Virus record (IMG/VR): IMGVR_UViG_3300044846_003573
Length of the DNA: 64,000 nt
Strand: one strand, 5' to 3'
Source: a virus
Taxonomy: Duplodnaviria > Caudoviricetes
Shown here: positions 26,304-52,880 of the stretch, piece by piece
Layout: every line of letters starts with the position of its first letter
Position numbering within the stretch: the stretch's first letter is position 1
Program-made: the position numbers and the translations under genes
The notes under the pieces: generated by a model
Databases searched by the model: none
What the model was told of the DNA's origin: nothing
The model's input: only the letters and a program-made list of their open reading frames with translations

Positions 26304-26909
26304 ATGAAAAAACTATTTGTACTAGCTATGGTAAGCCTTTTATGTTTACCTGTATTTTCTCAAACTTCTAACTATTACATTGAAATAGTTAACAATGACT
26401 TTAACAACGATAGTTGTGGAATTATAAATATGAGTATTGACCCTGCTGCTAATTATACAGCTTGTGGTGTAGTAGTAAATGGGGTTGGTATTAAAAAAAG
26501 TGTAACATACCCTTTTACTATGACTGCTAATCACATATTCAATTTTACTCTACATTTTGAAACTACTTGTGGATGTGTCTATGATTTTATAATCTCAGAT
26601 ACAGTAACGTTTGTACCAAATACCACATATGCAAGAGTAATTTTTGCTGATGGGGATGATTGCAATGACTCAAGTACTTTTGTTCTAGGGACAGATGAAT
26701 TAGAAATTACTACGGTTTTAACAATTTATCCTAGCCCAGCAACTGAACAGATAACTTTAAGTAGAATAGGTGATGTGTTAATATATTCATCTAATGGAAA
26801 GTTAGTTAAAAATGTTAGGAATGAGAAAATAATTGATGTTAGTGATTTACCAAGTGGGTTATATCTTGGATTCATTAATGGGAAGAAGTTTAATTTTATT
26901 AAAAAGTAA
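26304..26909 (+). CDS. secreted protein with T9SS C-terminal sorting domain
   Basis: signal peptide; IYPSPA..IYSSNGKLV..IDVSDLPSGLY..FIKK. Confidence 0.85.
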   Translation: MKKLFVLAMVSLLCLPVFSQTSNYYIEIVNNDFNNDSCGIINMSIDPAANYTACGVVVNGVGIKKSVTYPFTMTANHIFNFTLHFETTCGCVYDFIISDTVTFVPNTTYARVIFADGDDCNDSSTFVLGTDELEITTVLTIYPSPATEQITLSRIGDVLIYSSNGKLVKNVRNEKIIDVSDLPSGLYLGFINGKKFNFIKK

Positions 26910-27805: not shown

Positions 27806-28408
27806 ATGAAAAAACTATTTGTATTAGCTGTAGCAAGTCTTTTATGGCTTCCCGTATTTTCTCAAACAACATATTACATTAATATTGTTAATAGTGACTT
27901 CAACAATGATAGTTGTGGAATCATTAACACCACAATTGACCCTCCTGGGGATTGGATAGCATGTGGTGTATTAGTAAATGGGGTTGTGTTTCAAAAAAGT
28001 GTAACCTATTCGTATAACGTAACATCTGACCATATATTTAATTCTACTTTACACATTGAAACCACTTGTGGATGTGTCTATGATTTTACAATCACCGATA
28101 CTGTGTTATTCGCATTGTTAAATAGCCATTATACTAGAATAATTTTCATTGATGGAAATGATTGCACTGATTATGGTACAATTGTTTTAGGTGTGGATGA
28201 ATTAACTAGTGATGCTTTAACAGTTTATCCAAATCCAGCAAATAGTCAAATAACTTTAAGTAAGATAGGTGATGTGTTAATATATTCATCTAATGGACGG
28301 TTGATTAAGACTATTAAAAATAAGAAGGTAATTGATGTTAGTGATTTACCAAGTGGGTTATATCTTGGGTTCATTAATGGAGAGAAGTTTAACTTTATTA
28401 AAAACTAA
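27806..28408 (+). CDS. second T9SS C-terminal-domain protein
   Basis: paralog of 26304; VYPNPA..IDVSDLPSGLY. Confidence 0.85.
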   Translation: MKKLFVLAVASLLWLPVFSQTTYYINIVNSDFNNDSCGIINTTIDPPGDWIACGVLVNGVVFQKSVTYSYNVTSDHIFNSTLHIETTCGCVYDFTITDTVLFALLNSHYTRIIFIDGNDCTDYGTIVLGVDELTSDALTVYPNPANSQITLSKIGDVLIYSSNGRLIKTIKNKKVIDVSDLPSGLYLGFINGEKFNFIKN

Positions 28409-39372: not shown

Positions 39373-39720
39373 ATGAACCTACAAGAACACATAAAAAAAG
39401 TATTAAAAGAGGAGACGGGTGAAAGAACCAAACTTGAAAAGGTTATCACTAATGTTATCAACAGGTCATTAGATGGAAAAGAATTACCTGAAAACTTCCA
39501 TAGTGTTGTTGTTGATGTCTACGGAACAAAATACGGAGATGGTTGTATGATAACTTTATTGATGAAAAGGCCTTATAGTGAAGAAGAATCTGAAATGTTG
39601 TTTGATGTTAGTAGAGATGCTAAAAATTTAATTAAATCGTTCTTCAAAGAACATTTTCTTTATGGTATTAGTATTTCAACATCAACTATAGAAAATTACA
39701 TGAAGATGACAAGTGATTGA
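39373..39720 (+). CDS. MNLQE..LREE-tag family protein
   Basis: MNLQEHIKKVLKEE. Confidence 0.75.
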   Translation: MNLQEHIKKVLKEETGERTKLEKVITNVINRSLDGKELPENFHSVVVDVYGTKYGDGCMITLLMKRPYSEEESEMLFDVSRDAKNLIKSFFKEHFLYGISISTSTIENYMKMTSD

Positions 39721-39731
39721 ATATTAATTAT

Positions 39732-40040
39732 ATGAACTTACAAGAACACATAAGAAGAGTATTAAAAGAGGAAACTGAAAAGTTTGATAAGATAGAACAT
39801 TTTATGAAAACTGCTAATACATTATTCAGCAAACTAAAATTTAAGGCTGTTAAACGTGTTGAGTTTGATTATGACGAAAGGATTGAAGGGTTTATTGTTA
39901 ATGTATTTTATGATAGACAATATGCGATAGATAATCCAAAAAATTTCAATCAAGTAAAACAAAACTTTATTAAAGAAATTGGTTCAATCATTACAAGGTT
40001 TTTCCCATTCAAATTTTATATTTATTTATATGACGACTAA
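39732..40040 (+). CDS. MNLQE..LREE-tag family protein
   Basis: MNLQEHIRRVLKEE. Confidence 0.75.
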   Translation: MNLQEHIRRVLKEETEKFDKIEHFMKTANTLFSKLKFKAVKRVEFDYDERIEGFIVNVFYDRQYAIDNPKNFNQVKQNFIKEIGSIITRFFPFKFYIYLYDD

Positions 40041-40049
40041 TTATATATT

Positions 40050-40685
40050 ATGAACTTACACGAACACATAAAAAAAGTATTAAGAGAAGAGGTTAACAAG
40101 AAGTATTTGAAACCGAGTGAAAAATCCGAGAAATTTATTTTGGATAGATTGAATAGTATGGCTTCAGGTGCTGAAATATACCACGTTGAAAGTTATAAAA
40201 CAAGACACGATTTTGAGTTTTGTAAAAATGGAAAACAAATAATGAATCTCGCATTGTTCTTTGAAGAAACTGACGATAACACCCCAACGTCTGAAAGGAA
40301 ATTTGACTCTTCAACATTATCAGTACAAGAAGATTTTGTTGGTGGATTATTAGGGGCTTTTCCTGTTAGAAGAAATTATCTTTATTATATAATTGAAGAA
40401 TGGTTTGAAGATACTTTTTTAAGTAAAATCTCAAATATGATGGGTAGAAATGATATATCTGTTGAAGAATTATCATTTAATGATAGGTCATATACGTGTG
40501 TTCCACCAATTAATGAAGTACCTGAAGGAGTTACTCAAGACGAGATGATTAAGGTTATTATGAACAATACATTATGGCGTAAAAAAGATTTATTGGCGTT
40601 AGAAGAAAGAGAGCCTGGGTCTTTAGAATGGATGTATTTGAATAAACTTCGTAATAATGAGGTTAATAGATTAGATAATAGATAA
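40050..40685 (+). CDS. MNLQE..LREE-tag family protein
   Basis: MNLHEHIKKVLREE. Confidence 0.75.
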   Translation: MNLHEHIKKVLREEVNKKYLKPSEKSEKFILDRLNSMASGAEIYHVESYKTRHDFEFCKNGKQIMNLALFFEETDDNTPTSERKFDSSTLSVQEDFVGGLLGAFPVRRNYLYYIIEEWFEDTFLSKISNMMGRNDISVEELSFNDRSYTCVPPINEVPEGVTQDEMIKVIMNNTLWRKKDLLALEEREPGSLEWMYLNKLRNNEVNRLDNR

Positions 40686-40686
40686 T

Positions 40687-40968
40687 ATGAACCTACAGGA
40701 ACAAATAAGAATAGTATTAAGGGAAGTAGTTAATGAATCCAAAGGTTGGAGTGATTCAAAGCAAAAATTAGAAAGAACTTTTAAATTCAAAGATTTTAAT
40801 GAATCAATGGGATTTGTTAATAAAGTTGCGAAGATTGCCGAATCACAAAATCATCATCCCGATATTAAAATAAATTACAACAAAGTAAAATTATCAATAA
40901 CTGACCACGAAAAGGGTGGGGTATCTGAAAAATGTCATAAATTGGTAAAGGCTATTGATAAACTCTAA
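40687..40968 (+). CDS. phhB: pterin-4-alpha-carbinolamine dehydratase fused to MNLQE tag
   Basis: LERTFKFKDF..FVNKVA.IAE..NHHPDI..YNKV..L..H..GG.S. Confidence 0.88.
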   Translation: MNLQEQIRIVLREVVNESKGWSDSKQKLERTFKFKDFNESMGFVNKVAKIAESQNHHPDIKINYNKVKLSITDHEKGGVSEKCHKLVKAIDKL

Positions 40969-40972
40969 CAAT

Positions 40973-41455
40973 ATGAACCTACAAGAGAACATACAAAGGA
41001 TTAGAGAAATGATGGACATGCCTGATATGAATATATTAGATAAACCATTACAAATATGTAGTAAAAACCCAATGACAGGATATTACAGGGATGGGTATTG
41101 TAAGACGGATAGTTCAGATAAAGGAACACACACCGTTTGTAGTGAAGTAGATGATGAATTTCTTGAGTTTACAATGTCAAAAGGAAATGATTTATCTATG
41201 TTAAAAAGTGGGGACAGATGGTGTTTATGTGCAAATAGATGGAAAGAAGCGTATGATGCGGGTAAAGCACCAAAAGTAATTAAAAATGCGACAAACAAAA
41301 AAACATTAGATGTTATTGGTGATGATATTAAAGATGAAGAACTAACAGAATACGCAAGAACATTAAAAAACGCAAGACAACAGGGGGTTGGGTTAAGATT
41401 TCCGAAGTCAGCAATAAAAGCAAATCCAGCAAGGTTTAGACCTTACAACAGGTAA
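40973..41455 (+). CDS. DUF2237 protein fused to MNLQE tag
   Basis: CS.NPMTGYYRDGYC, HTVC, GNDLS, GDRWCLCA.RW. Confidence 0.85.
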   Translation: MNLQENIQRIREMMDMPDMNILDKPLQICSKNPMTGYYRDGYCKTDSSDKGTHTVCSEVDDEFLEFTMSKGNDLSMLKSGDRWCLCANRWKEAYDAGKAPKVIKNATNKKTLDVIGDDIKDEELTEYARTLKNARQQGVGLRFPKSAIKANPARFRPYNR

Positions 41456-41456
41456 T

Positions 41457-41939
41457 ATGAAAAAAATAATAAGACTAACAGAATCACAACTTATTTCATT
41501 AGTTAAAAGAGTGATTAATGAAAGTGACCCGAAAGATGGGACTGGTAAAAAACCAAAAGGGTCTGACAGAAGATTATATACTGATGAAAACCCAAAGGAT
41601 ACTGTATCGGTTAAGTTCAGAACAAAAGAAGACATTGTTGATACTTTAAACAAAGAAAGTTTCAAATCTAAATCACACGCTCGTCAGTCTCAGATTATAA
41701 ATCTTATACATCAGAGATTACGAGTTGCTTTGGAAAGAGCAAAAGACCCTGAGGTTAAGAAAAGATTAAGAACTGCCTTTGAATATATTGAGTCCAAAAA
41801 AGAACAATCTAAAAAGAAAACTCAGGAGATGAAAGAAAGTGAATTAACTGAAAGATGTTGGAAAGGATATACTCAAAAAGGAATGAAAACTATGTTTGGT
41901 AAGAGATACCCTAACTGTGTTAAAAATACAAAGAAATGA
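41457..41939 (+). CDS. LTESDL-tag protein with C-terminal CWKGY..GMK..PNCV motif
   Basis: tag plus a motif recalled from myophage proteins. Confidence 0.7.
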   Translation: MKKIIRLTESQLISLVKRVINESDPKDGTGKKPKGSDRRLYTDENPKDTVSVKFRTKEDIVDTLNKESFKSKSHARQSQIINLIHQRLRVALERAKDPEVKKRLRTAFEYIESKKEQSKKKTQEMKESELTERCWKGYTQKGMKTMFGKRYPNCVKNTKK

Positions 41940-42367
41940 ACCTACAAGAAACAATAAGACGAATATTAAGGGAAGAACTATATTCTCCATCAGGAGATGA
42001 AATGACACCTAATAAGTTTGTGGTCCATAAATCAAATCCGGTATGGAGAAAGAATATACGACTTAATGGGTTGTTGACATCGGTAGGGGAATGTTATGAG
42101 AATCACGCAATGGATTTATATGGTGAATGGTATACGGAATGTCAACCAGCAATTTTTGCCACAGATTCATTGGATAAAGAAGATATGTTTAGTGATGGTT
42201 ATGATGATGACACATGGTTAATAGATACAGAATGTGCTGGGGTTACTTGGTATAGAGATGCACATTTCGAAGGTGGAGATTATGAACATCATATTGTGAC
42301 ATTTGAGAATATATCATCTAACTGTATAAAATTAATCAATAAAGGAACAGGTAAAAGTATTTGGTAA
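41936..42367 (+). CDS. MNLQE-tag protein, possible ADP-ribosyltransferase-like fold
   Basis: VHKS..I..NGL and AIFAT pattern. Confidence 0.45.
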   Translation: MNLQETIRRILREELYSPSGDEMTPNKFVVHKSNPVWRKNIRLNGLLTSVGECYENHAMDLYGEWYTECQPAIFATDSLDKEDMFSDGYDDDTWLIDTECAGVTWYRDAHFEGGDYEHHIVTFENISSNCIKLINKGTGKSIW

Positions 42368-42368
42368 G

Positions 42369-42989
42369 ATGAACCTACAGGAACACATAAGAAGAGTATT
42401 AAGGGAAGATAAAAAGAGTAAATTCATTATGGATATTGTTGATAAACATGGTGTTTATAAGACGGCAGAAATGATGGGTGTAACTATTACCTATTTATAC
42501 AAAATGTCTGATTTAAAAATTGATGAATTTGTTGCTAAAGAACTATTGGCTGAAAATATTGAAAATGGTAATTTACCTGCAAAATATAAAGGATTTGAAA
42601 TTGAAATAAGTAGTGATGATGTGTTTTATTGGGCAAGGCAGTTTAAATCGGGACACTATCCACCTAATGTATTAGAAAAAATATGGGTAATGGCAACACC
42701 TTTTTTCGCAACTGCTGATTATACACCCGTTGAACTTGATTGGTATGGATTAGAAGATGACTCAAAGAAACCTAATGTAGGAATATACGATACAAGTGGT
42801 GATGGTGATTATTTTGTGGAACTTACACATAATACACATAATGGTAATTATTTTTTTAATAGTGTTGATAATTTATTTGATTGGTATAATACGTTTTACT
42901 TACCAGAAGTGTATGAAATAATCTTGGATAGATTCATACCTGAAGTCCAAGAAGACACAGATGAAAGACTTAGAGATAAAAATACTTAA
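42369..42989 (+). CDS. MNLQE..LREE-tag family protein
   Basis: MNLQEHIRRVLRED. Confidence 0.75.
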   Translation: MNLQEHIRRVLREDKKSKFIMDIVDKHGVYKTAEMMGVTITYLYKMSDLKIDEFVAKELLAENIENGNLPAKYKGFEIEISSDDVFYWARQFKSGHYPPNVLEKIWVMATPFFATADYTPVELDWYGLEDDSKKPNVGIYDTSGDGDYFVELTHNTHNGNYFFNSVDNLFDWYNTFYLPEVYEIILDRFIPEVQEDTDERLRDKNT

Positions 42990-43026
42990 GATACGGACTT
43001 AGGACCGTTGTAGTTTAGGCTACATT

Positions 43027-43059
43027 AACCCCATTGAATTCGCTACTCAGTGGGGTTTT
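43027..43059. terminator. bidirectional terminator overlapping the end of the array-gene operon
   Basis: AACCCCATTGA..TCAGTGGGGTTTT. Confidence 0.7.
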
Positions 43060-43777
43060 CATTTAAGACATCTTCCACCACTGGTGAATTACATGTACGT
43101 GATGTGTGTGTTGTAGTTACCTTATGATTTAGGACTTCTTTCACCTCACTGAGAACAATAGTGGGTCTACAATAGGTTTTAGACACCTTATGATTTAATA
43201 CCTTCTCCACCATATTCGGAAACGGCGGTGTATTGAATGATATTGTAGACACCTTATGATTTAATGCCTTTTCCACCAAAACCACTTGTTCCGCATTCGT
43301 CGTTTGTGTTGTAGATACCTTATGATTTAATACATCTTCCACCAAGAAACCTTCGTTACCGATATCGTTTTGCGTTGTGAATACCTTATAATTTAATACC
43401 TCTTCCATCTTCACATTTGCCTTCATGCCCATATAAACAGTTGTAGATACCTTATGATTTAATACCTCTTCCACCTCATCATACTTTTTCTCCGCACACA
43501 ATTCAGTTGTGGGCACCTTATGATTTAATACCTCTTCCACCCAAGAAGCGAGTATTGGTTCAAAATCTTTGGGTTCCAATGAGAAAATGGTAAAAAAACT
43601 ATTAAAGAAATAATATCTCCACCACAAACGACCACTCTTTTCAAATTCAAAATACCAATGCTCCTTTTCTCGGTCAATTAACCATATAGAATCTTTATAT
43701 GGGATTATCTCCACATTACCTAATTCTTTGTATAGTTGTTTGAATACAACCTGTTTTAATCTATCAGTTACTTTCAT
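43043..43777 (-). CDS. array gene A: about 80-aa domain plus in-frame repeat-spacer array (7 spacers)
   Basis: VEEVLNHKVSTT + 10 variable aa, period 22 aa. Confidence 0.85.
   Translation of the reverse strand: MKVTDRLKQVVFKQLYKELGNVEIIPYKDSIWLIDREKEHWYFEFEKSGRLWWRYYFFNSFFTIFSLEPKDFEPILASWVEEVLNHKVPTTELCAEKKYDEVEEVLNHKVSTTVYMGMKANVKMEEVLNYKVFTTQNDIGNEGFLVEDVLNHKVSTTQTTNAEQVVLVEKALNHKVSTISFNTPPFPNMVEKVLNHKVSKTYCRPTIVLSEVKEVLNHKVTTTHTSRTCNSPVVEDVLNENPTE
43044..43541 (-). repeat. CRISPR-like 36-nt repeat / 30-nt spacer array A
   Basis: repeats start at 43506, 43440, 43374, 43308, 43242, 43176, 43110 (period 66) plus a truncated terminal copy. Confidence 0.9.
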
Positions 43778-44507
43778 TTTCTTTTTTGTTGTTTAATGCC
43801 TCATCTACCGATTCCGCTCTTCTTGAGATGAATTCTTCCGTTTTGGATACCTTACGATTCAATATATCTTCCACCAAAAAGTTTCCTTCACCTACGTCAC
43901 GGACTGTTTTGGATACCTTAATATCCAATACCTCTTCCATCTCAAGATTACCTCTTGGGTGGAGATACTCCGTTGTAGATACCTTACGATTCAATACCTG
44001 TTCCACCAAATAGTTGTTAGATAAGGTCATGTTTTTTGTTGTGGATACCTTACTATTCAATACCTCTTCCATCATATCATTCGAAGTGAAACTGAATTGC
44101 TGAGTTGTGGATACCTTACTATTCAATACCTCTTCCACCCCTTGCTTAAAACTTCTGAAACGGCTTGCAGTTGTGGATACCTTACTATTCAATACCTCTT
44201 CCACCCCACCATCCATGACATATTGCGTGCTATCTGTTGTGGATACCTTACTATTCAATACCTCTTCCACCCAAGATGAAATAATTGGTTCAAAATCTTT
44301 GGACTCCAAAGAGAAAAAAGAAAAGAAAGATTTGAAATAATCATATCTCCAATATAAACATCCACTTTCAGTTAGTTGGAAATACCAGTATTTTTCTTCT
44401 CTATCAATAAACCAATAACTGTATTGGGTAGGGATAATTTCCACATTACCTAATTCTTTGTATAGTTGTTTGAATATGAGTTGTTTTAATCTATCCGTTA
44501 CTTTCAT
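43764..44507 (-). CDS. array gene B (7 spacers)
   Basis: VEEVLNSKVSTT repeats; start overlaps stop of gene C. Confidence 0.85.
   Translation of the reverse strand: MKVTDRLKQLIFKQLYKELGNVEIIPTQYSYWFIDREEKYWYFQLTESGCLYWRYDYFKSFFSFFSLESKDFEPIISSWVEEVLNSKVSTTDSTQYVMDGGVEEVLNSKVSTTASRFRSFKQGVEEVLNSKVSTTQQFSFTSNDMMEEVLNSKVSTTKNMTLSNNYLVEQVLNRKVSTTEYLHPRGNLEMEEVLDIKVSKTVRDVGEGNFLVEDILNRKVSKTEEFISRRAESVDEALNNKKENESN
43774..44271 (-). repeat. CRISPR-like array B
   Basis: repeats at 44236, 44170, 44104, 44038, 43972, 43906, 43840; the first three are identical GTTGTGGATACCTTACTATTCAATACCTCTTCCACC. Confidence 0.9.
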
Positions 44508-45195
44508 TTTCTTTTTTATTGTTTAATGCCTTTTTCACCCAAACACTATTTAATACTTCTTCCACTGACCTTTCGGAAAACAAGGAATTATTTTTAGTTG
44601 TAGATACCCTACTATCTAATACTTTTTTTACCTTTCTTTTTTGGGCGGCGTCTACTTCAAAAGTTTCGGATACCTTATGATTTAAGACCTCTTCCACCCA
44701 CTTTGCTGTTACAGTAGTTTTCTCTTCAGTTGTGGATACCTTATGATTTAATACCTCTTCCACCAGAGGAAATTCGTCAATTACAAACATTTTTGTTGTG
44801 GATACCTTATGATTTAAGACCTCTTCCACCTGAAGTAAGCGGTGGGCCAATGTATTACCTGTTGTGGATACCTTATGATTTAATACCTCTTCCACCTTAT
44901 TGTCTCGGCGTACGGAAGGTATACGAGTTGTGGATACCTTATGATTTAAGACCTCTTCCACCCAAGAAGATATTATTGGTTCAAACTCACTCTGTTCCAA
45001 AGAGAAAATGCTGAAAAACGATGGGAAGAATGAGTATCTCCAAAATAAACATCCCTCTTTAGACAACTGAAAATACCAATAACAATTTTCCCTATCAATG
45101 AACCATACAGAGTCTTTATATGGGATTATCTCCGCATTACCTAACTCTTTGTATAGGTGTTTGAATATGAGTTGTTTTAGCTTATCTGTAACCAT
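44491..45195 (-). CDS. array gene C (6 spacers)
   Basis: ATG at 45195, 5 nt after TATCTTTG. Confidence 0.85.
   Translation of the reverse strand: MVTDKLKQLIFKHLYKELGNAEIIPYKDSVWFIDRENCYWYFQLSKEGCLFWRYSFFPSFFSIFSLEQSEFEPIISSWVEEVLNHKVSTTRIPSVRRDNKVEEVLNHKVSTTGNTLAHRLLQVEEVLNHKVSTTKMFVIDEFPLVEEVLNHKVSTTEEKTTVTAKWVEEVLNHKVSETFEVDAAQKRKVKKVLDSRVSTTKNNSLFSERSVEEVLNSVWVKKALNNKKENESNG
44531..44962 (-). repeat. CRISPR-like array C
   Basis: repeats at 44927, 44861, 44795, 44729, 44663, 44597. Confidence 0.9.
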
Positions 45196-45231
45196 AAGCA
45201 CAAAGATACAAAAAAACTTTGAAAATACAAA

Positions 45232-45570
45232 TTAATTTTCAGACGGTAATTTTAACGACCATTGGGAGCTCATTATCTTGTTGGACATTTGACCCTCCAA
45301 ATTCAGTTTTTTCTTAACCCATTGTCCAATAATTCTGGTAGATTGATAACTGTTAAGAGAAAAGAAGGAAGAAATTGCTTCAATTAAACCTTTATAGATA
45401 AAACACAATTCATTATTGGAATGATTACCACCATATTGAATTTGAGCAGACTCATCTTTAGGATATGAAAAATATATACTGGCACCAGTTTTAGTTATAT
45501 TGAAATCCTGACTATCAAGATACCTGAATATTACTTTATCTAATTGTGATTCTGTGATTAAATATTTCAT
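45232..45570 (-). CDS. MKYxITESQL-tag protein (IFRYLD domain)
   Basis: shared tag and domain. Confidence 0.8.
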   Translation of the reverse strand: MKYLITESQLDKVIFRYLDSQDFNITKTGASIYFSYPKDESAQIQYGGNHSNNELCFIYKGLIEAISSFFSLNSYQSTRIIGQWVKKKLNLEGQMSNKIMSSQWSLKLPSEN

Positions 45571-45938
45571 GATAATGTTATACTTCTAACTGATTTAACT
45601 TCATAGTCAGGAAAGAACTCATTAAATACATCTGACATAATGAATTTGCCGTGAACTAACCAAATAGGATGAGGAAACGCTGTACCATATACATCGTCAA
45701 AGTTCCTATTATAGTATAAATCACCACTTGGTTTATTATAAACCATTACGGCGTTTTGGTCACTATCAAATAAGTTAAGTCTTAAATCATTTTCAGAATG
45801 TGAATCAACCAAATTTTCAAAATAACGAATCATTTTAGGTTTGAGTCTATTGTATTGTTCCGTATATTCAGAATCTCTCCAAGTTCTTTCAAGTTCGGAT
45901 ATTAAATTATATTGTGACTCGGTAATAATATACTTCAT
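45567..45938 (-). CDS. MKYxITESQ-tag protein
   Basis: shared tag. Confidence 0.75.
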   Translation of the reverse strand: MKYIITESQYNLISELERTWRDSEYTEQYNRLKPKMIRYFENLVDSHSENDLRLNLFDSDQNAVMVYNKPSGDLYYNRNFDDVYGTAFPHPIWLVHGKFIMSDVFNEFFPDYEVKSVRSITLS

Positions 45939-45970
45939 GTAATAATAAATATAATTATATTTATAATATT

Positions 45971-46294
45971 ATGAACCTACAAGAGAATATAAAAAAAGTA
46001 TTAAGGGAAGAAACAGATTTTTCACCACAGTTCAAAAGAAGACTGAATAGATTTAAATCGTTTGTATGGGATAATAATGTAACTAATTATCCATGTGATT
46101 TTGAAAACTTTGAAGCGTTCATGCGTGGTATACAACATGAAATTATGGACATGATTACAGATGGTTCTGATACCGATGGCCCGTTGTCTGATTGGTTAAC
46201 ATATAAAGATGGTGTTACGTATGTAGAAAACTACATGAGGGATGACTTAGAAAAGTTTTATAATAAGCAATGTGTTGATGTCTTATACGTATAA
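45971..46294 (+). CDS. MNLQE..LREE-tag protein
   Basis: shared tag; TATTTAT upstream. Confidence 0.75.
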   Translation: MNLQENIKKVLREETDFSPQFKRRLNRFKSFVWDNNVTNYPCDFENFEAFMRGIQHEIMDMITDGSDTDGPLSDWLTYKDGVTYVENYMRDDLEKFYNKQCVDVLYV

Positions 46295-46639
46295 ATCAAG
46301 AAATTGTTCAATTGATATTCCAAGACCTGAGATACCAAAAAAGTTCATAAAGTCGGATTCATCCCAAGTATCACATCCGTTATTAATAATCCAAGATTGA
46401 CCTGTGGCATAATTCATCTGATAAAGTAAATCATAACTATTATCTAATTTTATCAGATACATCGGACCATAATTGTCCATATTAAATCTTCTTTGCATAC
46501 TATTATAACTAATACACTCATCAAAAATTATCATTACATCAGTTAAATCTGGGTCAAACTCAACACGACCTGTCAGGTCAATATTAAACTTGTCTTTAAT
46601 GAATGTTTTTAATTTAGATTCGGTGATAAGATATTTCAT
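46283..46639 (-). CDS. MKYxITES-tag protein
   Basis: shared tag. Confidence 0.75.
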   Translation of the reverse strand: MKYLITESKLKTFIKDKFNIDLTGRVEFDPDLTDVMIIFDECISYNSMQRRFNMDNYGPMYLIKLDNSYDLLYQMNYATGQSWIINNGCDTWDESDFMNFFGISGLGISIEQFLDLYV

Positions 46640-46655
46640 TATATATAAATATTAG

Positions 46656-47066
46656 TTAACAATTTCCTGTATTATAAACCTCAATATTGTGAACACTAAT
46701 TAGACCGCCACCGAACTGATATAAAGCCTTAGAAATAACATCTCTATACATACTTCTTGTACCTTCCTCATAGATATACCTTCCCACATTTGCAGGAGCT
46801 GGCTTAGGTATGTAGACGACCAAATTCATAGAGTCACGAGTGGGGATGATATTATAACTACAATACATCAAGACGGTTGAGATATCATTTTCAAGTATAG
46901 TTTTTGTTAGAAAGATAATATCTTCTCTTGTTCCTTTAAGACCAATCTCATCAATAATATCTTCAGGTTCCTTATCAGTCATTTTACACAGAGTACGCAT
47001 ACCAAATTTCTCTAATAAGGGTTTAAGAGTTTTGTTATATTGATTCTCAGTGATTAAGTATTTCAT
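46656..47066 (-). CDS. MKYxITEN-tag protein
   Basis: shared tag. Confidence 0.75.
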   Translation of the reverse strand: MKYLITENQYNKTLKPLLEKFGMRTLCKMTDKEPEDIIDEIGLKGTREDIIFLTKTILENDISTVLMYCSYNIIPTRDSMNLVVYIPKPAPANVGRYIYEEGTRSMYRDVISKALYQFGGGLISVHNIEVYNTGNC

Positions 47067-47078
47067 TATATGTAAATA

Positions 47079-47411
47079 TTAGTTATAGTGAACCTTCAAA
47101 ACTTCGGACTTGCTAAAGACAACCCATTGTGAGTAACTGACTTCCATTTGTAGGGTATTTCCAACCCAATTACCAATAATCTTTTTAGAGCGGACTTCAT
47201 CTAAAGAAAATAATACAGAGATGTCCTCAATTAAATTTAAGTTTATCTGACAAACACCATTTTTTTTATTATATCTAATTTGGGCATGTTCATCTTCTTC
47301 TGAATTAACAAAGAATATATTACTACTTGTTTCAATCTGAATAAAGTTCTGGCTATCCAAATATCTAAAGATTACTCTGTCTAATTGTGATTCGGTGATA
47401 AGGTATTTCAT
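47079..47411 (-). CDS. MKYxITESQL-tag protein (IFRYLD domain)
   Basis: shared tag and domain. Confidence 0.8.
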   Translation of the reverse strand: MKYLITESQLDRVIFRYLDSQNFIQIETSSNIFFVNSEEDEHAQIRYNKKNGVCQINLNLIEDISVLFSLDEVRSKKIIGNWVGNTLQMEVSYSQWVVFSKSEVLKVHYN

Positions 47412-47414
47412 ATA

Positions 47415-47735
47415 TTAATAATCAAAAAACATAACATCAACATCAAATGCTTTACTAAACCAATCAGAAATGAATTTACCTGATTGCTCTTTATCAAGTG
47501 GATACATGGATGAAAACTTATCTAAAAAAGATTCATCAATATATAATCTACCATCGCTGTGGTCAAACTCCATTAAAATAAAAAAATCAGGGCCTCTTTC
47601 AGGGCTATATATATTAATGAAATCACTATCTGATGTTCTATCATAATCTAATAATTTATTTAACTCAGATATCATTAAATTATTTATTACCGATTTGACT
47701 TTATCTAATTGTGATTCGGTGATGAGGTATTTCAT
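47415..47735 (-). CDS. MKYxITESQL-tag protein
   Basis: start moved to MKYLITE. Confidence 0.75.
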   Translation of the reverse strand: MKYLITESQLDKVKSVINNLMISELNKLLDYDRTSDSDFINIYSPERGPDFFILMEFDHSDGRLYIDESFLDKFSSMYPLDKEQSGKFISDWFSKAFDVDVMFFDY

Positions 47736-47768
47736 ATAAAATATAAATATAATCATATTTATAATAAT

Positions 47769-48098
47769 ATGAACTTAAAAGAATCTATAAAAAGAATACT
47801 GAGGGAAGAACTATCGGCGAGAATTAAAAGAAGACTTTCTAATGATGAAATGGAAAATGAGTTTCTTGAATCTTTTGAAGGCGCTTATCGTCTTACAAAA
47901 GACAGAAAGGTTTTAAGTTCACATTTTTTAGATGAGTTAGTCTACACAACAATAACCTTTATGATGGATGGGGTACATTGGAGATTTGTTAGTACATTAC
48001 CTGAAGATGAATTTTGGTATGATGATATACACCAAGGATTAGAAAATCATTATAGAAAAAGAATTACACGGATGTATAATGAAAGAAAAGGTTTTTAA
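47769..48098 (+). CDS. MNLxE..LREE-tag protein
   Basis: MNLKESIKRILREE. Confidence 0.75.
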   Translation: MNLKESIKRILREELSARIKRRLSNDEMENEFLESFEGAYRLTKDRKVLSSHFLDELVYTTITFMMDGVHWRFVSTLPEDEFWYDDIHQGLENHYRKRITRMYNERKGF

Positions 48099-48101
48099 AG
48101 A

Positions 48102-48380
48102 TTAATTAGAGTTTAAGAATTTGAGTAACGCTCTAATATATTCGGAACGTTTATTATAGAATTCAGTATCATCATCATATTGAAAAAACTCTTCACCTCT
48201 ATGTCTATCAACGAACTTTTCAATTAATTCATAAGCGTAGTCATCTCTGTCGGCGGAATCTTCAAAATCTTCTTCATCCATAATGTAGTTATAATCATCC
48301 CTAAGTGATTCCAATTCATCCATTGTAAACCTCCTAAGTAAAAATGCTTCTAACTGTGATTCTGTAATTAAGTATTTCAT
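48102..48380 (-). CDS. MKYxITESQL-tag protein
   Basis: shared tag; acidic body. Confidence 0.75.
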   Translation of the reverse strand: MKYLITESQLEAFLLRRFTMDELESLRDDYNYIMDEEDFEDSADRDDYAYELIEKFVDRHRGEEFFQYDDDTEFYNKRSEYIRALLKFLNSN

Positions 48381-48733
48381 TATTCGTTAACCATTAATCT
48401 GTAATCATATGGACCATCCCAAACCGTACTATCACTAATACCCAAAGTATTATTAACCCATGCTTTGATTATATCCAAACAATCCGATTTATCAATGGAG
48501 AAGAAGGTAGATAATTTATCAGTCAAATCAGAATTTACAAACACCCAATTCCTAACTTCACCAAAAGCGTTATTAGTATAAACACTAATCTGTGATTCCC
48601 TATCTGACTCACTGTTTAAGAAATATATATAATTGCTGAATTTCTTCTTGTTGTCATACATCACAAAGTCCTGAATATCAAGATACTTAAAGATTACTTT
48701 CTCTAATTTTGATTCGGTGATAAGGTATTTCAT
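48380..48733 (-). CDS. MKYxITES-tag protein (IFKYLD domain)
   Basis: shared tag and domain. Confidence 0.8.
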   Translation of the reverse strand: MKYLITESKLEKVIFKYLDIQDFVMYDNKKKFSNYIYFLNSESDRESQISVYTNNAFGEVRNWVFVNSDLTDKLSTFFSIDKSDCLDIIKAWVNNTLGISDSTVWDGPYDYRLMVNE

Positions 48734-49068
48734 TATATATAAATATTCTTAGGTATTTTCAACCAAGACTGGGTCATCAAACCAGCCTTGGTGGTATTTG
48801 TAACTTTCATTTGTAGGGTATTCCCAACCCACCTACCAATAGCCGATTCAGAATCAGATTTGTCCAAAGAAAATAACGATGAGATGTTCTTGATTAATTC
48901 GGGACTTATTACGCAACCAAAATTACCATTTTTGATTTGAGCATATTCATCATCTTCAGAGTTAACGAAGTATACTAAAAGACCTATTTTAATTTGAATA
49001 AAATCTTGATGGTTCAAGTAAATAAAGATTGCTCTATCTAATTGTGATTCGGTGATAAGGTATTTCAT
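48733..49068 (-). CDS. MKYxITESQL-tag protein (IFxYL domain)
   Basis: shared tag and domain. Confidence 0.8.
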   Translation of the reverse strand: MKYLITESQLDRAIFIYLNHQDFIQIKIGLLVYFVNSEDDEYAQIKNGNFGCVISPELIKNISSLFSLDKSDSESAIGRWVGNTLQMKVTNTTKAGLMTQSWLKIPKNIYI

Positions 49069-49080
49069 TATATATAAGTA

Positions 49081-49395
49081 TTAGTTAGGTGCTCTCAATC
49101 GTTCAGTGGGTAGGGTGTAAGAAATCTTTATTTGGAGAGTATCACTAACCCAACTACCAATAACTTCTTTTGAATCTAAATAATGTAAAGAAAATAAAGA
49201 AGAAATCTCATCAATTAATTTAGTGGATATATAACACCATTCATTAGTTATACTAGATTTAATTTGAGCGTATTCGTCACCTTCTGAATTAATAAAGTAT
49301 ACACCACCATTTTTCTCAATCTGAATAAAATCCTGATTATCCAAGTACTTAAAGATTACCTGATTTAATTTAGATTCTGTTATAAGGTATTTCAT
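49081..49395 (-). CDS. MKYxITES-tag protein (IFKYLD domain)
   Basis: start moved to MKYLITE. Confidence 0.8.
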   Translation of the reverse strand: MKYLITESKLNQVIFKYLDNQDFIQIEKNGGVYFINSEGDEYAQIKSSITNEWCYISTKLIDEISSLFSLHYLDSKEVIGSWVSDTLQIKISYTLPTERLRAPN

Positions 49396-49502
49396 TATAT
49401 ATAAATACAAAGATACACATAAAACTGAACAATACATATTGGGTTAATAATTTAATAAGAATATGATAATATGGTTTGAGGTTGTTTTTAATACTTATTA
49501 TT

Positions 49503-50210
49503 ATGGATTTATCAAAGTTTTTAACCATAGTAATCCCTTGTAAGAACGAGGGCAAGATAATAGAACAAACGTTGTCCTTATTAAACTTTCAAAAGGGAAT
49601 ACAAGATGTTAGAGTTATTGTTTGTGATTCATCGGATGATGATTATACATCCTATTCTTTGGAAAATAGGAGAACAGATTATTTTAATCTACAGATTATT
49701 TCAGGAGGACTTCCGTCTGTTGCAAGAAATAAGGGGGCTGAGAATGTGGAAACACCTTATGTTTTATTTTTGGATGCTGACATATTCTTATTGGATTTCA
49801 ACATATTAAACAATTGTATATGGGAGTTCTTATTACATAATACAGATTTGATTACATGTAAGGTAAGGTCAACGACAGGTGAGTATAATAGTATATTCAG
49901 ATTGTTTGATACAATACAAAAGGTATTTAAACCAATCACGCCATTTTGTCTTGGTGGGTTCATGATGGTAAAGAAAGAAGTATATGATACAATCGGTGGG
50001 TTTGATGAAAACGCAAGAGTTGCCGAGGATTATCTATTCTCCAAACAAGTTAAACCAAGCAAGTTTTATATCATGAATACGACGGTATTCACAAGTCCAA
50101 GAAGGTTCAAACAGAAAGGGGTGTGGTATATGTTAAAACTTATGGTTAGTTCATTCTTCAACAGAAACAATAAAAATCATTTTGAGGATGATAAAGGATA
50201 CTGGGAATGA
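49503..50210 (+). CDS. family 2 glycosyltransferase
   Basis: IVIPCKNE, VIVCDSSDD, ARNKG, LFLDAD, EDY. Confidence 0.9.
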   Translation: MDLSKFLTIVIPCKNEGKIIEQTLSLLNFQKGIQDVRVIVCDSSDDDYTSYSLENRRTDYFNLQIISGGLPSVARNKGAENVETPYVLFLDADIFLLDFNILNNCIWEFLLHNTDLITCKVRSTTGEYNSIFRLFDTIQKVFKPITPFCLGGFMMVKKEVYDTIGGFDENARVAEDYLFSKQVKPSKFYIMNTTVFTSPRRFKQKGVWYMLKLMVSSFFNRNNKNHFEDDKGYWE

Positions 50211-50923
50211 ATAATTGGAAAACAATAATCATGAGTGATTTACACTTAGGAGCAAGACAATCACAGACAGATAAGATAATAAGTTTCTTGGATAATAACA
50301 CAACAGAAAAACTAATACTGAACGGTGATATTATAGATGGTTGGGCTCTTAAAGGTAATGGTAAATGGACGAAGGATTGTACCAAGATATTCAGGAAGTT
50401 CATGAAGATGTCTGAGAAGAATACAAAGGTAATTTATATAAGAGGAAACCACGATGACTTCCTAAAAGATTTTATTCCATTTAAATTAAACAACATTAGG
50501 ATTGTAAGAAAGTATATACATAATGGTATTGACGGAAGAAAGTATTTTTGTTTTCACGGGGATGTATTGGATTTCGTTATAATGGAAGCGAGGTGGTTAG
50601 CAGTAATCGGTGGATGGTCATATGATATTGTCATTAAGTTTAATACTCTATATAACAAAATAAGAAAGTGGTTTAACTTACCATATCATTCATTGGCAAA
50701 CACAATAAAACAATCAGTAAAAGGGGCAATTAACTTTGTATCTGATTTTGAACAAAACGCGAAAGGTCTAACAAAACAAAAGGGATATGATGTTGCGGTG
50801 TGTGGACATATTCATCACCCGAAGATAGAGAATGACTATATGAACTCAGGAGACTTTTGTGAGAACTCTACATGTCTTGTAGAAGATTATAACGGGGAGT
50901 GGAAGATTATTACTATTAGTTAG
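50207..50923 (+). CDS. LpxH-like (UDP-2,3-diacylglucosamine diphosphatase family) metallophosphoesterase
   Basis: SDLHLG, NGDIIDGW, GNHDD, HGD, CGHIH, NSGD. Confidence 0.85.
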   Translation: MNNWKTIIMSDLHLGARQSQTDKIISFLDNNTTEKLILNGDIIDGWALKGNGKWTKDCTKIFRKFMKMSEKNTKVIYIRGNHDDFLKDFIPFKLNNIRIVRKYIHNGIDGRKYFCFHGDVLDFVIMEARWLAVIGGWSYDIVIKFNTLYNKIRKWFNLPYHSLANTIKQSVKGAINFVSDFEQNAKGLTKQKGYDVAVCGHIHHPKIENDYMNSGDFCENSTCLVEDYNGEWKIITIS

Positions 50924-51245
50924 GTATTTTAAACAAATTGTTCACATCGTGAAAGACCAAACGGGTATAAGTAACCCTCATTTGTAGAGTATTTTCAACC
51001 CATCTACCGATAACTTCCTTAGAATCATATATGTCCAAAGAAAAGAAAGAAGAAATTTCGTAAATTAATCCATGGCGTATATAACACCAACCATCGTTTC
51101 TATCATATCTGATTTGGGCATATTTATCATCTTCCGAATTAACAAAGTATATTGCGTTTCCTCTTTTAATCTGAATAAAGTTCTTAATATCCAAATATCT
51201 AAAGATTACTCTGTCTAATTGTGATTCTGTGATAAGATATTTCAT
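50916..51245 (-). CDS. MKYxITESQL-tag protein (IFRYLD domain)
   Basis: shared tag and domain. Confidence 0.8.
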   Translation of the reverse strand: MKYLITESQLDRVIFRYLDIKNFIQIKRGNAIYFVNSEDDKYAQIRYDRNDGWCYIRHGLIYEISSFFSLDIYDSKEVIGRWVENTLQMRVTYTRLVFHDVNNLFKIPN

Positions 51246-51275
51246 TACATATAAATATCATAAAGATAATAACTA

Positions 51276-51834
51276 TTATTGATTTAAGACCTGTTCCATC
51301 ACATAGTTCATAACAGACATTTCTACATCCGTTGTACATTCCTTATGATTTAATACCTCTTCCACCCCTCTTGTGAAGGGTCCAGAATATGCTTCCAATG
51401 TTGATACCTTATGATTTAATACCTCTTCTACCTCAATTTTTCCAACGTAATCAAGTGAATCGGTTGTAGATACCTTATGATTTAATACTTCTTCCACCAA
51501 TGAATGTTCGGGGTATTTGAGAATGGTAGTTGTAGACACCTTAACATTATGACTTAATACATCTTCCACCCGTGTTCGGATATGAGCATTGTGAGTATTA
51601 GTTGTGGATACCTTACTATTCAATACCTCTTCCACCTTCCAAGGAACACGAACTTTAACATCGCACGTTGTGGATACCTTATGATTTAATACATCTTCCA
51701 CCATCATGCTTTCAACACCGCTACCTGTCACGGTTGTAGATACCTTATGATTTAAGACCTCTTCCACCTTGTCCGTTGTAATTGGAAGTGGAATGAAGGT
51801 TGTGGATACCTTATGATTTAAGACCTCTTCCACC
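51276..51834 (-). repeat. CRISPR-like array D
   Basis: repeats at 51799, 51733, 51667, 51601, 51529 (6-nt insertion), 51463, 51397, 51331. Confidence 0.9.
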
Positions 51835-52070
51835 CAAGAAGATAGAACAGGACAAAAATCATCCAAACTCATGGAGAATATTTGAAAAAACGAATTAAAA
51901 AAATCGTATCTCCACCATAAAGTACCTGACTCATCAAGTTCAAAGTACCAGTATTTATTATCCCTATTAATAAACCATATAGACCCATTATAAGGAATAA
52001 TCTCACAATCACCCAACTCTTTATATAGGTGTTTAAAAATAAGTTGTTTTAATCTATCTGTAATAACCAT
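51276..52070 (-). CDS. array gene D (8 spacers)
   Basis: paralog of A-C; ATG 4 nt after TATATTTG. Confidence 0.85.
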   Translation of the reverse strand: MVITDRLKQLIFKHLYKELGDCEIIPYNGSIWFINRDNKYWYFELDESGTLWWRYDFFNSFFQIFSMSLDDFCPVLSSWVEEVLNHKVSTTFIPLPITTDKVEEVLNHKVSTTVTGSGVESMMVEDVLNHKVSTTCDVKVRVPWKVEEVLNSKVSTTNTHNAHIRTRVEDVLSHNVKVSTTTILKYPEHSLVEEVLNHKVSTTDSLDYVGKIEVEEVLNHKVSTLEAYSGPFTRGVEEVLNHKECTTDVEMSVMNYVMEQVLNQ

Positions 52071-52089
52071 AGAGCAAATATAGTAAGAA

Positions 52090-52880
52090 ATTATGAACTA
52101 AACAAACTCATTCCCCCATTCCACTATCGTGTCGTTCCATTCCCCTTCGGGTCATTACACTAATGGGTTCATTCATTTGTTTACTTCCTAATTTCATCAG
52201 GTCAAGAACTTCCTAATTTCCCCTATTGTATGAATCTATAATTAACGTACAACACTAATCTATAATAATCCCCCATAATGAAAGACACATACTATGAAGG
52301 GACATAACATATTACTGTTAATGGTATTGTACCCCATCGGGATAATGAAATACCCTAAAGGGTATATAAGATGATATTAGTATACCTGTTAGGGTATAAA
52401 ATATATGGTGGAATGTGAAAGGGACAATGTTCTTTATAGGGAACATAACCCTACAGGGTTATCCCTTATATAACACATTATGTCCCACTTTTTACCACCA
52501 CTATAATTGTCCATATCATGTGTCTATATGGTAAGGGGAAATCTTAAAAACCCCCTTGAAGACACTATAAAATACACTTTTCGTTGAAGGATTTAAACAA
52601 CTAAAGTCTGTCCACGCCACTTTATTGTTACATCCTATTTTTAGCTGGAAAATGTATATAGTTAAAAAAACCCTTCTCACACTATCAGGAGGACCACTTT
52701 TTTCACTTTTCATATAACCAAAAACCCCTCTCACATATACGTCAGTGGTAAAAAGTGGGAACATTTACCTATGGACAATATACATAATATACACTATATT
52801 TATAGTTGTTAATATGTCTAAAACCCGTCAAGGGGATTATCCCTTATCTGACGCTCCCCTGACATTTTGACAAAATCAAG
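52090..52880. other. long, largely non-coding palindrome-rich region
   Basis: three ACCCT/AGGGT-type palindromes (52350, 52381, 52445) and a 16-bp inverted repeat 52483-52498/52745-52760. Confidence 0.6.

Follow-up and report, generated by a model that had tools for sequence, protein, structure and literature searches.

Four genes in a 64,000-nt stretch of the IMG/VR virus record IMGVR_UViG_3300044846_003573 (the whole stretch is referred to here as the window) contain arrays built like CRISPR arrays, with 36-nt repeats alternating with unique 30-nt spacers, and these arrays are translated as part of the encoded proteins. By comparing the arrays with those of related phages and metagenomic homologues, we show that the spacers turn over as whole 30-nt blocks, that novelty lies beside an N-terminal domain and the far end of the array is old and decayed, that the blocks do not carry the phage's own composition, and that, once present, they are under purifying selection as peptide. 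The arrays suggest that new peptide cassettes can be written into a gene by a route not described so far.

Translated repeat-spacer arrays

A fuzzy search of the window located 28 repeats on the plus strand in four groups, and the open reading frames (ORFs) that span these groups all lie on the minus strand (44491-45201, 43764-44507, 43043-43777, and 51276-52070; genes A, B, C, and D, respectively). Within the arrays, 23 of 24 gaps are 30 nt long, and the remaining one, of 36 nt, results from a 6-nt in-frame insertion inside one gene D repeat; counting the spacer past each final repeat, the total comes to 6+7+7+8 = 28 spacers. Each gene encodes an 85-amino-acid (aa) domain followed by 6 to 8 units (36-nt repeat plus 30-nt spacer) and a truncated, decayed repeat, and in the resulting tail peptide 12 conserved residues (VEEVLNHKVSTT) alternate with 10 residues of essentially random sequence.

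Gene A (44491..45195, minus strand) consists of the N-terminal domain and 6 units, with repeats at 44597-44962 and degenerate terminal repeats; its start is corrected here to the ATG at 45195, the GTG at 45201 falling within the promoter-like TATCTTTG. Genes B (43764..44507, minus strand; repeats 43840-44271) and C (43043..43777, minus strand; repeats 43110-43541) have 7 units each, and all gene B repeats carry a B-specific variant (16G, 21G). Gene D (51276..52070, minus strand) has 8 units, with repeats at 51331-51834. Genes A, B, and C overlap start to stop, the gene A stop overlapping the gene B start, and a single element of the Bacteroidota type TAnnTTTG stands ahead of them; gene D has its own. 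These two elements, TATCTTTG (45201..45208, minus strand, 5 nt ahead of the gene A ATG at the head of the A-B-C operon) and TATATTTG (52075..52082, minus strand, 4 nt ahead of the gene D ATG), match a motif that we take to be the established -7 promoter element of Bacteroidota, an assignment that is putative here.

The spacers are open in the frame of the genes. Taken together with 3 spacers from a relative, the 28 window spacers hold no in-frame stop codon where ∼19 were expected from shuffles, a result obtained in 0 of 20,000 shuffles, and the same 31 spacers contain 8 to 31 stops in the other five frames. When relatives were added, 89 unique spacers had 0 stops in 801 in-frame codons and 27 to 89 in the other five frames. 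Substitutions follow the same frame: variants of a shared spacer across phages differ by 37 changes, of which 20 are synonymous and 17 non-synonymous (ratio of non-synonymous to synonymous rates [dN/dS], ∼0.24), and codon position 3 holds 21 of the 37. In the repeats, too, variation is mainly at third positions, and the hydrophobic pattern is kept even in decayed copies. The initial annotation, made from the letters alone, had described the 36-plus-30 geometry with unique, stop-free spacers read in frame and had argued that translation is under selection; the description extends from the window to the 89 spacers, and the argument now has the substitution pattern beside the stop counts. The frame is open through all spacers, which sets these genes apart from a noncoding array processed into CRISPR RNAs, and they are best explained as real, translated early genes.

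The repeat shows a second layer of conservation. It is offset from the codon frame, beginning at the wobble position of the final spacer codon and ending with the second base of a Thr codon. Its first base, which is that wobble position, is G in 76 of 80 distinct repeat variants, and in 191 decapeptide clusters nearly all final residues derive from NNG codons; the base after ACA-AC is unconstrained (A 24, C 18, G 14, T 33). Several repeat codons are rare in the phage (GTG, 10%; GAG, 25%; AAG, 33%; TCC, 6%), and synonymous-codon identity between diverged paralogs is 0.74 to 0.85 in the repeats versus 0.55 to 0.61 in the N-terminal domain. The fixed wobble G on one side and the free wobble on the other had been seen in the initial annotation from the window genes, as had the likelihood of a unit defined at the DNA level; the wider set of variants, the rare codons, and the synonymous conservation all indicate that the repeat is also constrained as DNA and that the unit borders are set by nucleotides.

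Whole-block turnover and foreign composition

Homologues of the array proteins number at least 864 in metagenomes, with lengths in 22-aa steps, as is also the case for the homologues of gene A, and among the best 120 of these at least 864 proteins the gaps between repeats are exactly 10 aa in 432 of 441 instances. A pattern scan of IMG/VR recovered 19 loci on ∼16 contigs, and every inter-repeat gap in them is 30 nt. Repeat and spacer lengths are constant across the window and these 19 loci, as in CRISPR arrays, and the spacers show no relation to one another: unique spacers compared pairwise are about as identical as shuffling predicts, and mismatches between distinct spacer pairs are bimodal, at either 1 to 6 or at least 12, with one pair at 9. 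Distant homologues, which form 310 clusters at 50% identity, mostly keep the 22-aa period and show periods of 21 to 25 aa where the repeats have decayed.

Comparison of the window with relative G001 (∼95% identical) identified 14 spacers shared almost unchanged, comprising all 7 of gene C (with point changes only), the 4 distal ones of gene A, and 3 of gene B; the differences between the two phages are whole units, located beside the domain and at one internal site. In the set of 120 proteins, only 4 of 703 ordered spacer pairs conflict in order, the distance of common spacers from the far end of the array is constant, and singletons account for 38% of spacers at the domain-adjacent position versus 9% at the most distal one. 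Within an array, unrelated spacers are separated by a repeat variant specific to that array, and a private 24G change is confined to the three domain-proximal repeats of L020/L026, which flank spacers exclusive to that lineage, the pattern expected if the first repeat were copied at each insertion. Conserved order, a conserved far end, a decayed last repeat, and domain-proximal novelty together constitute the pattern of polar growth, and we infer gain rather than loss at the domain-proximal end. The initial annotation had named gradual point-mutation divergence of duplicated spacers as the mark of an ordinary protein repeat and had looked to orthologous arrays for novelty next to the domain; the relatives gain, lose, or replace whole blocks, and the novelty lies where it had been sought.

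The composition of the spacers differs from that of the surrounding DNA. Spacer GC is 0.40 to 0.41 versus 0.32 for the window, an excess already apparent in the initial annotation from a few spacers, and when dinucleotides are included the spacers (GC, 0.411; rho(CG), 0.90; rho(GC), 0.88) are well separated from the phage genome (0.32, 0.66, and 0.57, respectively). Stop-free 30-mers taken from the phage genome have a GC of 0.333 (standard deviation, 0.011) and never exceeded 0.36 in 300 sets. The GC content of third codon positions (GC3) is 0.37 in spacers versus 0.26 in phage genes, and at the newest spacer positions GC reaches ∼0.44 and GC3 ∼0.42; the trend of spacer GC with spacer age runs in the direction of amelioration and is not significant. 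The composition of the decapeptides fits that of translated random DNA of 41% GC (r = 0.85), and H, C, R, W, and P are much more frequent in them than in the phage proteome. Every spacer position varies among all four bases, and the position-specific composition of the decapeptides is flat. An open-frame excess test for an origin of the spacers as real genomic fragments returned a z score of 4.7 and was discarded because it is confounded by codon-periodic composition. An ordinary tandem-repeat protein with fast-evolving linkers does not fit the bimodal mismatches, the shuffle-level identities, and the foreign composition.

The phage, its host, and the array protein family

The window has 32% GC, is dense with small genes, encodes DnaK, RNA ligase, an endolysin, and two tRNAs, and is part of a large phage. 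Related IMG/VR records measure 209 to 241 kb and are rated 71 to 82% complete, and proteins homologous to those of the array genes sit on contigs of ∼294 kb; a ∼294-kb lake-water phage of Bacteroidota, a jumbo phage of lytic type, is the best explanation. The host phylum is assigned on the basis of the type IX secretion C-terminal sorting domain (Por_Secre_tail) in two window proteins (26304-26909 and 27806-28408, plus strand; E values of 3e-9 and 5e-10), which suggests that these proteins are phage cargo for the Bacteroidota-specific secretion system. The DnaK/Hsp70 gene (7406-9277, plus strand) has 60 to 70% identity to copies in very large uncultured phages of 480 to 735 kb. The dinucleotides GC (rho, 0.57) and CG (rho, 0.66) are strongly depleted in the phage genome (relative G002 and the window), whereas rho(GC) is ∼1.0 to 1.2 in sampled Bacteroidota genomes, and the depletion may reflect avoidance of restriction sites.

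The array locus was found in at least 18 lake-water metagenome runs. Two metatranscriptome runs contain contigs that join domain, repeat, and spacer, which is weak evidence of expression because DNA carry-over is possible. Searches of GenBank phages gave no match to the locus or to protein A (blastn and tblastn), the array proteins have no family in Pfam, PHROGs, or the ESM Atlas, and no description of translated CRISPR-like arrays was found in the literature. The 240-kb genome of G002 has other tandem repeats, which are ordinary linkers, either acidic or Pro/Thr-rich, without relation to the arrays; among its repetitive regions is a ∼13-kb stretch (G002:C1:169400-183000; L063-L064) with periods of 54, 63, and 81 nt, likewise unrelated to the 36/30 arrays and probably one giant repeat protein.

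The N-terminal alpha/beta domain of gene A (44920..45195, minus strand) was predicted by AlphaFold2 with a mean predicted local distance difference test (pLDDT) score of 94.6, as a helix, four strands, two helices, and a strand, and in this model the first repeat supplies the last part of helix 3 together with the short closing strand of the domain. Foldseek returned no informative Protein Data Bank match for the domain and, in the AlphaFold DB, only two uncharacterised clusters. In the AlphaFold2 model of full-length protein A the array part has a pLDDT of 30 to 40 and no defined repeat fold; given this very low confidence, it may be flexible.

The domain, including its repeat segment, is homologous to a set of single-unit paralogs that begin with MKYLITE (50916..51245, 48733-49068, and 47079-47411, minus strand). 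These carry a 36-nt segment homologous to the array repeat, 29 variable nt, and a partial copy of the segment start that is read in another frame as LK(I/V)P, and they resemble one-spacer relics of the arrays, or their forerunners. The region from 39373 to 51245 holds two big families of small paralogous genes with near-identical N termini, one on the minus strand (MKYLITESQL...) and one on the plus strand (MNLQE...), and the distant array proteins P0122, P0213, and P0224 have an MKYIITE leader ahead of the array domain. In a Pfam scan the neighbours of the array genes were small paralogs, a GT2 glycosyltransferase, and a metallophosphoesterase; the last two, the phosphoesterase being calcineurin-like (LpxH-type), lie at 49476-50923 on the plus strand, amid the paralogs and beside gene D.

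Origin of new units and relation to known systems

The likeness to 36/30 repeats of Bacteroidota that the initial annotation had pointed out holds against published Flavobacterium columnare sequences. The phage repeat is identical in register to the type VI-B repeat of that species (PMC5395568) at 23 to 24 of 36 positions (64 to 67%; shuffle P = 2.5e-6), with matches at 7 of 10 positions at the start, 5 of 14 in the middle, and 12 of 12 at the leader-distal end (T variant), and the phage arrays have the same sense and leader side. The F. columnare VI-B array lacks its own cas1 and cas2 and is loaded in trans by the Cas1-Cas2 of a type II-C system; a leader-distal GTTGT motif is the one feature common to the II-C and VI-B repeats served by that one Cas1-Cas2 (PMC8092290). 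Of the 12 third codon positions, 9 to 10 match the VI-B repeat in the array repeat versus 2 to 5 in the corresponding segment of the single-unit paralogs, which suggests that the synonymous sites of the array repeat have been tuned towards a CRISPR-type sequence.

A new unit would arise in a CRISPR-type event at the junction of domain and repeat, with 30 bp of non-phage DNA entering and the 36-bp repeat being duplicated; units would be lost, or transferred between paralogs, by recombination between repeats; and insertions that bring a stop or break the frame would be purged by selection, about half of random 30-mers passing the stop filter. We regard block insertion of some kind as somewhat probable, and we give roughly even odds to the specific proposal that arrays gain units beside the domain through insertions that duplicate the repeat. 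As integrase, a host type II-C Cas1-Cas2 would be likeliest, working in trans in the way known for the cas1-less VI-B arrays of F. columnare, and it is favoured because the repeat ends and synonymous sites match that repeat class; as the inserting agent it is nevertheless a tentative choice, in our estimate closer to one chance in three than to an even one. Slightly more doubtful still is the full account, in which a lytic jumbo phage would write 30-bp pieces of DNA into its own coding genes by way of the host II-C Cas1-Cas2, the repeat having evolved, within the limits of the encoded peptide, as an integration substrate, so that the phage would possess a heritable decapeptide repertoire growing at one end, a CRISPR memory held as protein and not as guide RNA, presumably against host defences. 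As to function, our guess is an early protein of the cytoplasm that would display short peptides in a changeable set and take part in the conflict with host defences; a putative host-type promoter directly before the start and the turnover of cassettes are compatible with such a role.

Several observations weigh against insertion by a host CRISPR system. The middle of the repeat lacks the VI-B inner stem, and an older family of phage proteins has a C-terminal helix homologous to the array repeat, so that part of the CRISPR resemblance is inherited from protein-coding sequence. An Rfam scan of 42800-52300 at a permissive E value gave only chance matches and none to a CRISPR-DR family, and no array with a closer repeat was found in GTDB representatives, where a scan for the repeat ends recovered only the VI-B arrays of F. 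columnare and F. covae. Among 401 Flavobacteriaceae, repeat ends with up to 3 mismatches occurred as 2 single matches, which is the control level, and no closer array was found; array DNA compared with F. columnare, F. covae, Owenweeksia, and one Bacteroidota metagenome-assembled genome also matched at chance level. In the related phage records, whose completeness ranges from 29 to 82%, Cas1 (PF01867) was absent from G002 to G006, Cas2 (PF09827) from G001 to G004 and G006, and reverse transcriptase (RVT_1) from five records. The spacers themselves had no source in G002 or in the fetched loci, where matches outside arrays were chance matches of 13 to 17 nt; in G002, 0 of 89 spacers matched and no spacer had a second copy in 240 kb. 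A Cas1-Cas2 complex at work in an infected cell should sample the replicating phage often, and yet 0 of 89 spacers match phage. No protospacer was found in GenBank phages (permissive blastn with two array regions; chance matches only) or for 5 spacers in IMG/VR and 2 in JGI metagenomes, which returned the arrays themselves or nothing. The spacer GC of 0.41 to 0.44 is above expectation for a low-GC host, and the array differences among the genomes at hand can also be explained by loss from longer ancestors. The initial annotation had proposed that a Cas1-Cas2-like or other integrase may insert foreign 30-mers; whole-block turnover and non-phage composition are in line with the insertion half of that proposal, and its enzymatic half gained nothing from the searches that it had recommended for protospacers with a shared protospacer-adjacent motif (in relatives, GenBank phages, IMG/VR, JGI metagenomes, and Flavobacterium genomes), for cas1, cas2, or reverse transcriptase in related phage records, and for a closer bacterial repeat in Rfam, GTDB representatives, and the 401 Flavobacteriaceae. 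Because these searches returned no protospacer, no such gene, and no closer bacterial array, we keep the Cas1-Cas2 step conditional.

The alternative that survives best, although we consider it unlikely, is that recombination alone is at work, with an old pool of cassettes being shuffled, deleted, and imported by way of the conserved repeats, rare novelty arising by duplication and divergence, and no insertion machinery taking part. Units do move between paralogs and positions, as CDV(K/E)VRVPWK is found in both A-type and D-type genes, TFGGGGHSK occurs twice within one array protein, and one unit of gene D bears a B-type repeat. Contigs from the lake metagenomes break at repeats, with alternative spacers on both sides, a few distant spacer pairs look homologous (21/30), and the 21- to 25-aa periods of diverged members are those of ordinary coding evolution; degenerate distal repeats would also recombine less, which could produce polarity by itself. 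Recombination leaves the origin of ∼200 mutually unrelated blocks unexplained, however, and it does not fit the lack of a continuum of spacer divergence, spacers that lack the phage's base, dinucleotide, and synonymous-site composition, decapeptides that look like translated random DNA, or private repeat variants limited to the proximal repeats of one lineage.

Less likely again is a diversity generator encoded by the phage, whether non-templated synthesis or a new integrase, that would put in 30-nt blocks with no host CRISPR proteins. The near-random composition of the spacers, with the GC and GC3 of the newest positions given above, and the failure of every search named here to find a spacer source both speak for such a generator, and a build that is old and widespread in this phage group, as the 310 clusters suggest, fits a self-contained trait. 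On the other hand, no candidate enzyme adjoins the arrays, where the neighbours are the small paralogs, the GT2 protein, and the metallophosphoesterase, no reverse transcriptase, Cas1, or Cas2 was found in the related records, and the match of repeat ends and synonymous sites to a host CRISPR class would go unexplained.

An RNA product is improbable. On this view the arrays would serve as cas-less phage CRISPR arrays or as repeat decoys, loading or sequestering host Cas13b or Cas9, and the open frame would do no more than preserve the transcript and its translation. Geometry, sense, and leader side are those of VI-B arrays, a putative promoter lies directly ahead of the leader-like domain, the two metatranscriptome runs contain the contigs that join domain, repeat, and spacer, and phage repeat mimics that block CRISPR are known (PMC10651486). 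Spacer and repeat substitutions nevertheless track codon positions, which a guide or decoy RNA would not impose and which disfavours the mainly RNA or decoy role entertained in the initial annotation; the repeat motif is kept as peptide in distant relatives with diverged DNA, the nearest known repeat is only 64 to 67% identical and the VI-B inner stem is missing, the predicted repeat hairpin is weak (-5.4 to -6.3 kcal/mol), and the spacer searches found no targets. Least probable is a multi-core peptide precursor of cyanobactin-type layout, with the domain as leader, the 12-mers as recognition sequences, and the decapeptides cut out, for although a leader is followed by repeated flanks, conserved even at synonymous sites, around fixed-length hypervariable cores that are each under purifying selection, no maturation enzyme or protease was recognised among the neighbours in the Pfam scan, the cores lack a residue pattern and resemble random DNA, a DNA rule (NNG), and not a cleavage site, dictates the last core residue, and the first supposed recognition sequence is an integral helix of the folded domain.

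If insertion of units by a host Cas1-Cas2 is correct, these genes would be the first CRISPR-type repeat-spacer architecture with spacers expressed as peptides, and they would represent a new natural form of protein diversification, whole-cassette insertion with a 30-nt ruler as opposed to the point mutagenesis of diversity-generating retroelements (DGRs). Cross-talk in CRISPR adaptation would then reach beyond cas-less arrays sharing a cell and include the invader's genome, and one would have to ask how a phage benefits from displaying short peptides that can be changed. The genes form an unusual hypervariable protein family, with unit borders set by nucleotides and cassettes of non-genome composition, even on the most conservative of the alternatives. 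The arrays also expose a blind spot, as finders of CRISPR arrays and repeat mimics mask or discard arrays that overlap ORFs, and for this reason a family present in at least 18 lake runs and at least 864 proteins has so far gone undescribed.

Among known systems, cyanobactin precursors of the PatE type have flanks that are conserved at the nucleotide level around fixed-length hypervariable cassettes. The phage arrays share this layout and differ in that their cores have no composition pattern, their unit borders are set by nucleotides and not by residues, and maturation genes are lacking; no maturation enzymes were found among the neighbours in the Pfam scan and core composition is flat, and we did not assign the genes to the multi-core ribosomally synthesized and post-translationally modified peptides. 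DGRs, of the type found in Bordetella phage BPP-1, need a reverse transcriptase and a template repeat and change adenine positions only. They resemble the phage arrays in diversifying a defined protein stretch at the DNA level with sharp borders, whereas the arrays replace whole 30-nt blocks and come with neither a detected reverse transcriptase nor a second spacer copy; a DGR was rejected given the absence of RVT_1 from five records and of a template copy from 240 kb and the variation of all four bases. The "CRISPR-like loci" inside genes, such as vlpC of Helicobacter pylori, also place a repeat-spacer pattern inside an ORF without cas genes, but the H. pylori spacers are 16 to 69 bp long, identical position by position in all strains, and variable only by duplication or deletion (PMC6330956), in contrast to the exact spacer length, the hundreds of unrelated spacers, and the polar novelty of the phage arrays.

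Cas-less viral CRISPR elements (mini-arrays, solitary repeat units, and RNA anti-CRISPRs) are likewise phage-borne repeats of CRISPR type that stand behind a promoter without cas genes, and they are noncoding and at least 90% identical to the host repeat (PMC10651486). The phage arrays have 6 to 9 units with spacers that turn over, lie in a translated gene, and are ∼65% identical to any known repeat, and with 64 to 67% identity and a repeat inside an ORF we rejected their identity as RNA anti-CRISPRs or solitary repeat units. The published finder of viral repeats masks ORFs before its search (PMC10651486), so that arrays of this kind would escape it.

The closest parallel is the VI-B array of F. 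columnare. Both systems have 36-nt repeats, unique 30-nt spacers, and transcription from the leader side into the array, and both show new units on the leader side, a decayed terminal repeat, conserved spacer order, and array-specific repeat variants. At one F. columnare locus (L038) a CA-rich stretch and a truncated repeat close the array, and the last repeat of an F. covae VI-B array, at the array far end (L045:5376-5500), is split by a ∼50-nt insertion. Spacer length is always 30 nt in the phage arrays versus 29 to 31 nt in the F. columnare array. The phage repeat has an unrelated middle, no cas genes or protospacers were found for it in the searches described above, and its carrier is a lytic-type jumbo phage; above all, the phage array lies inside an ORF and is selected as protein, and what takes the place of the leader is a folded protein domain.

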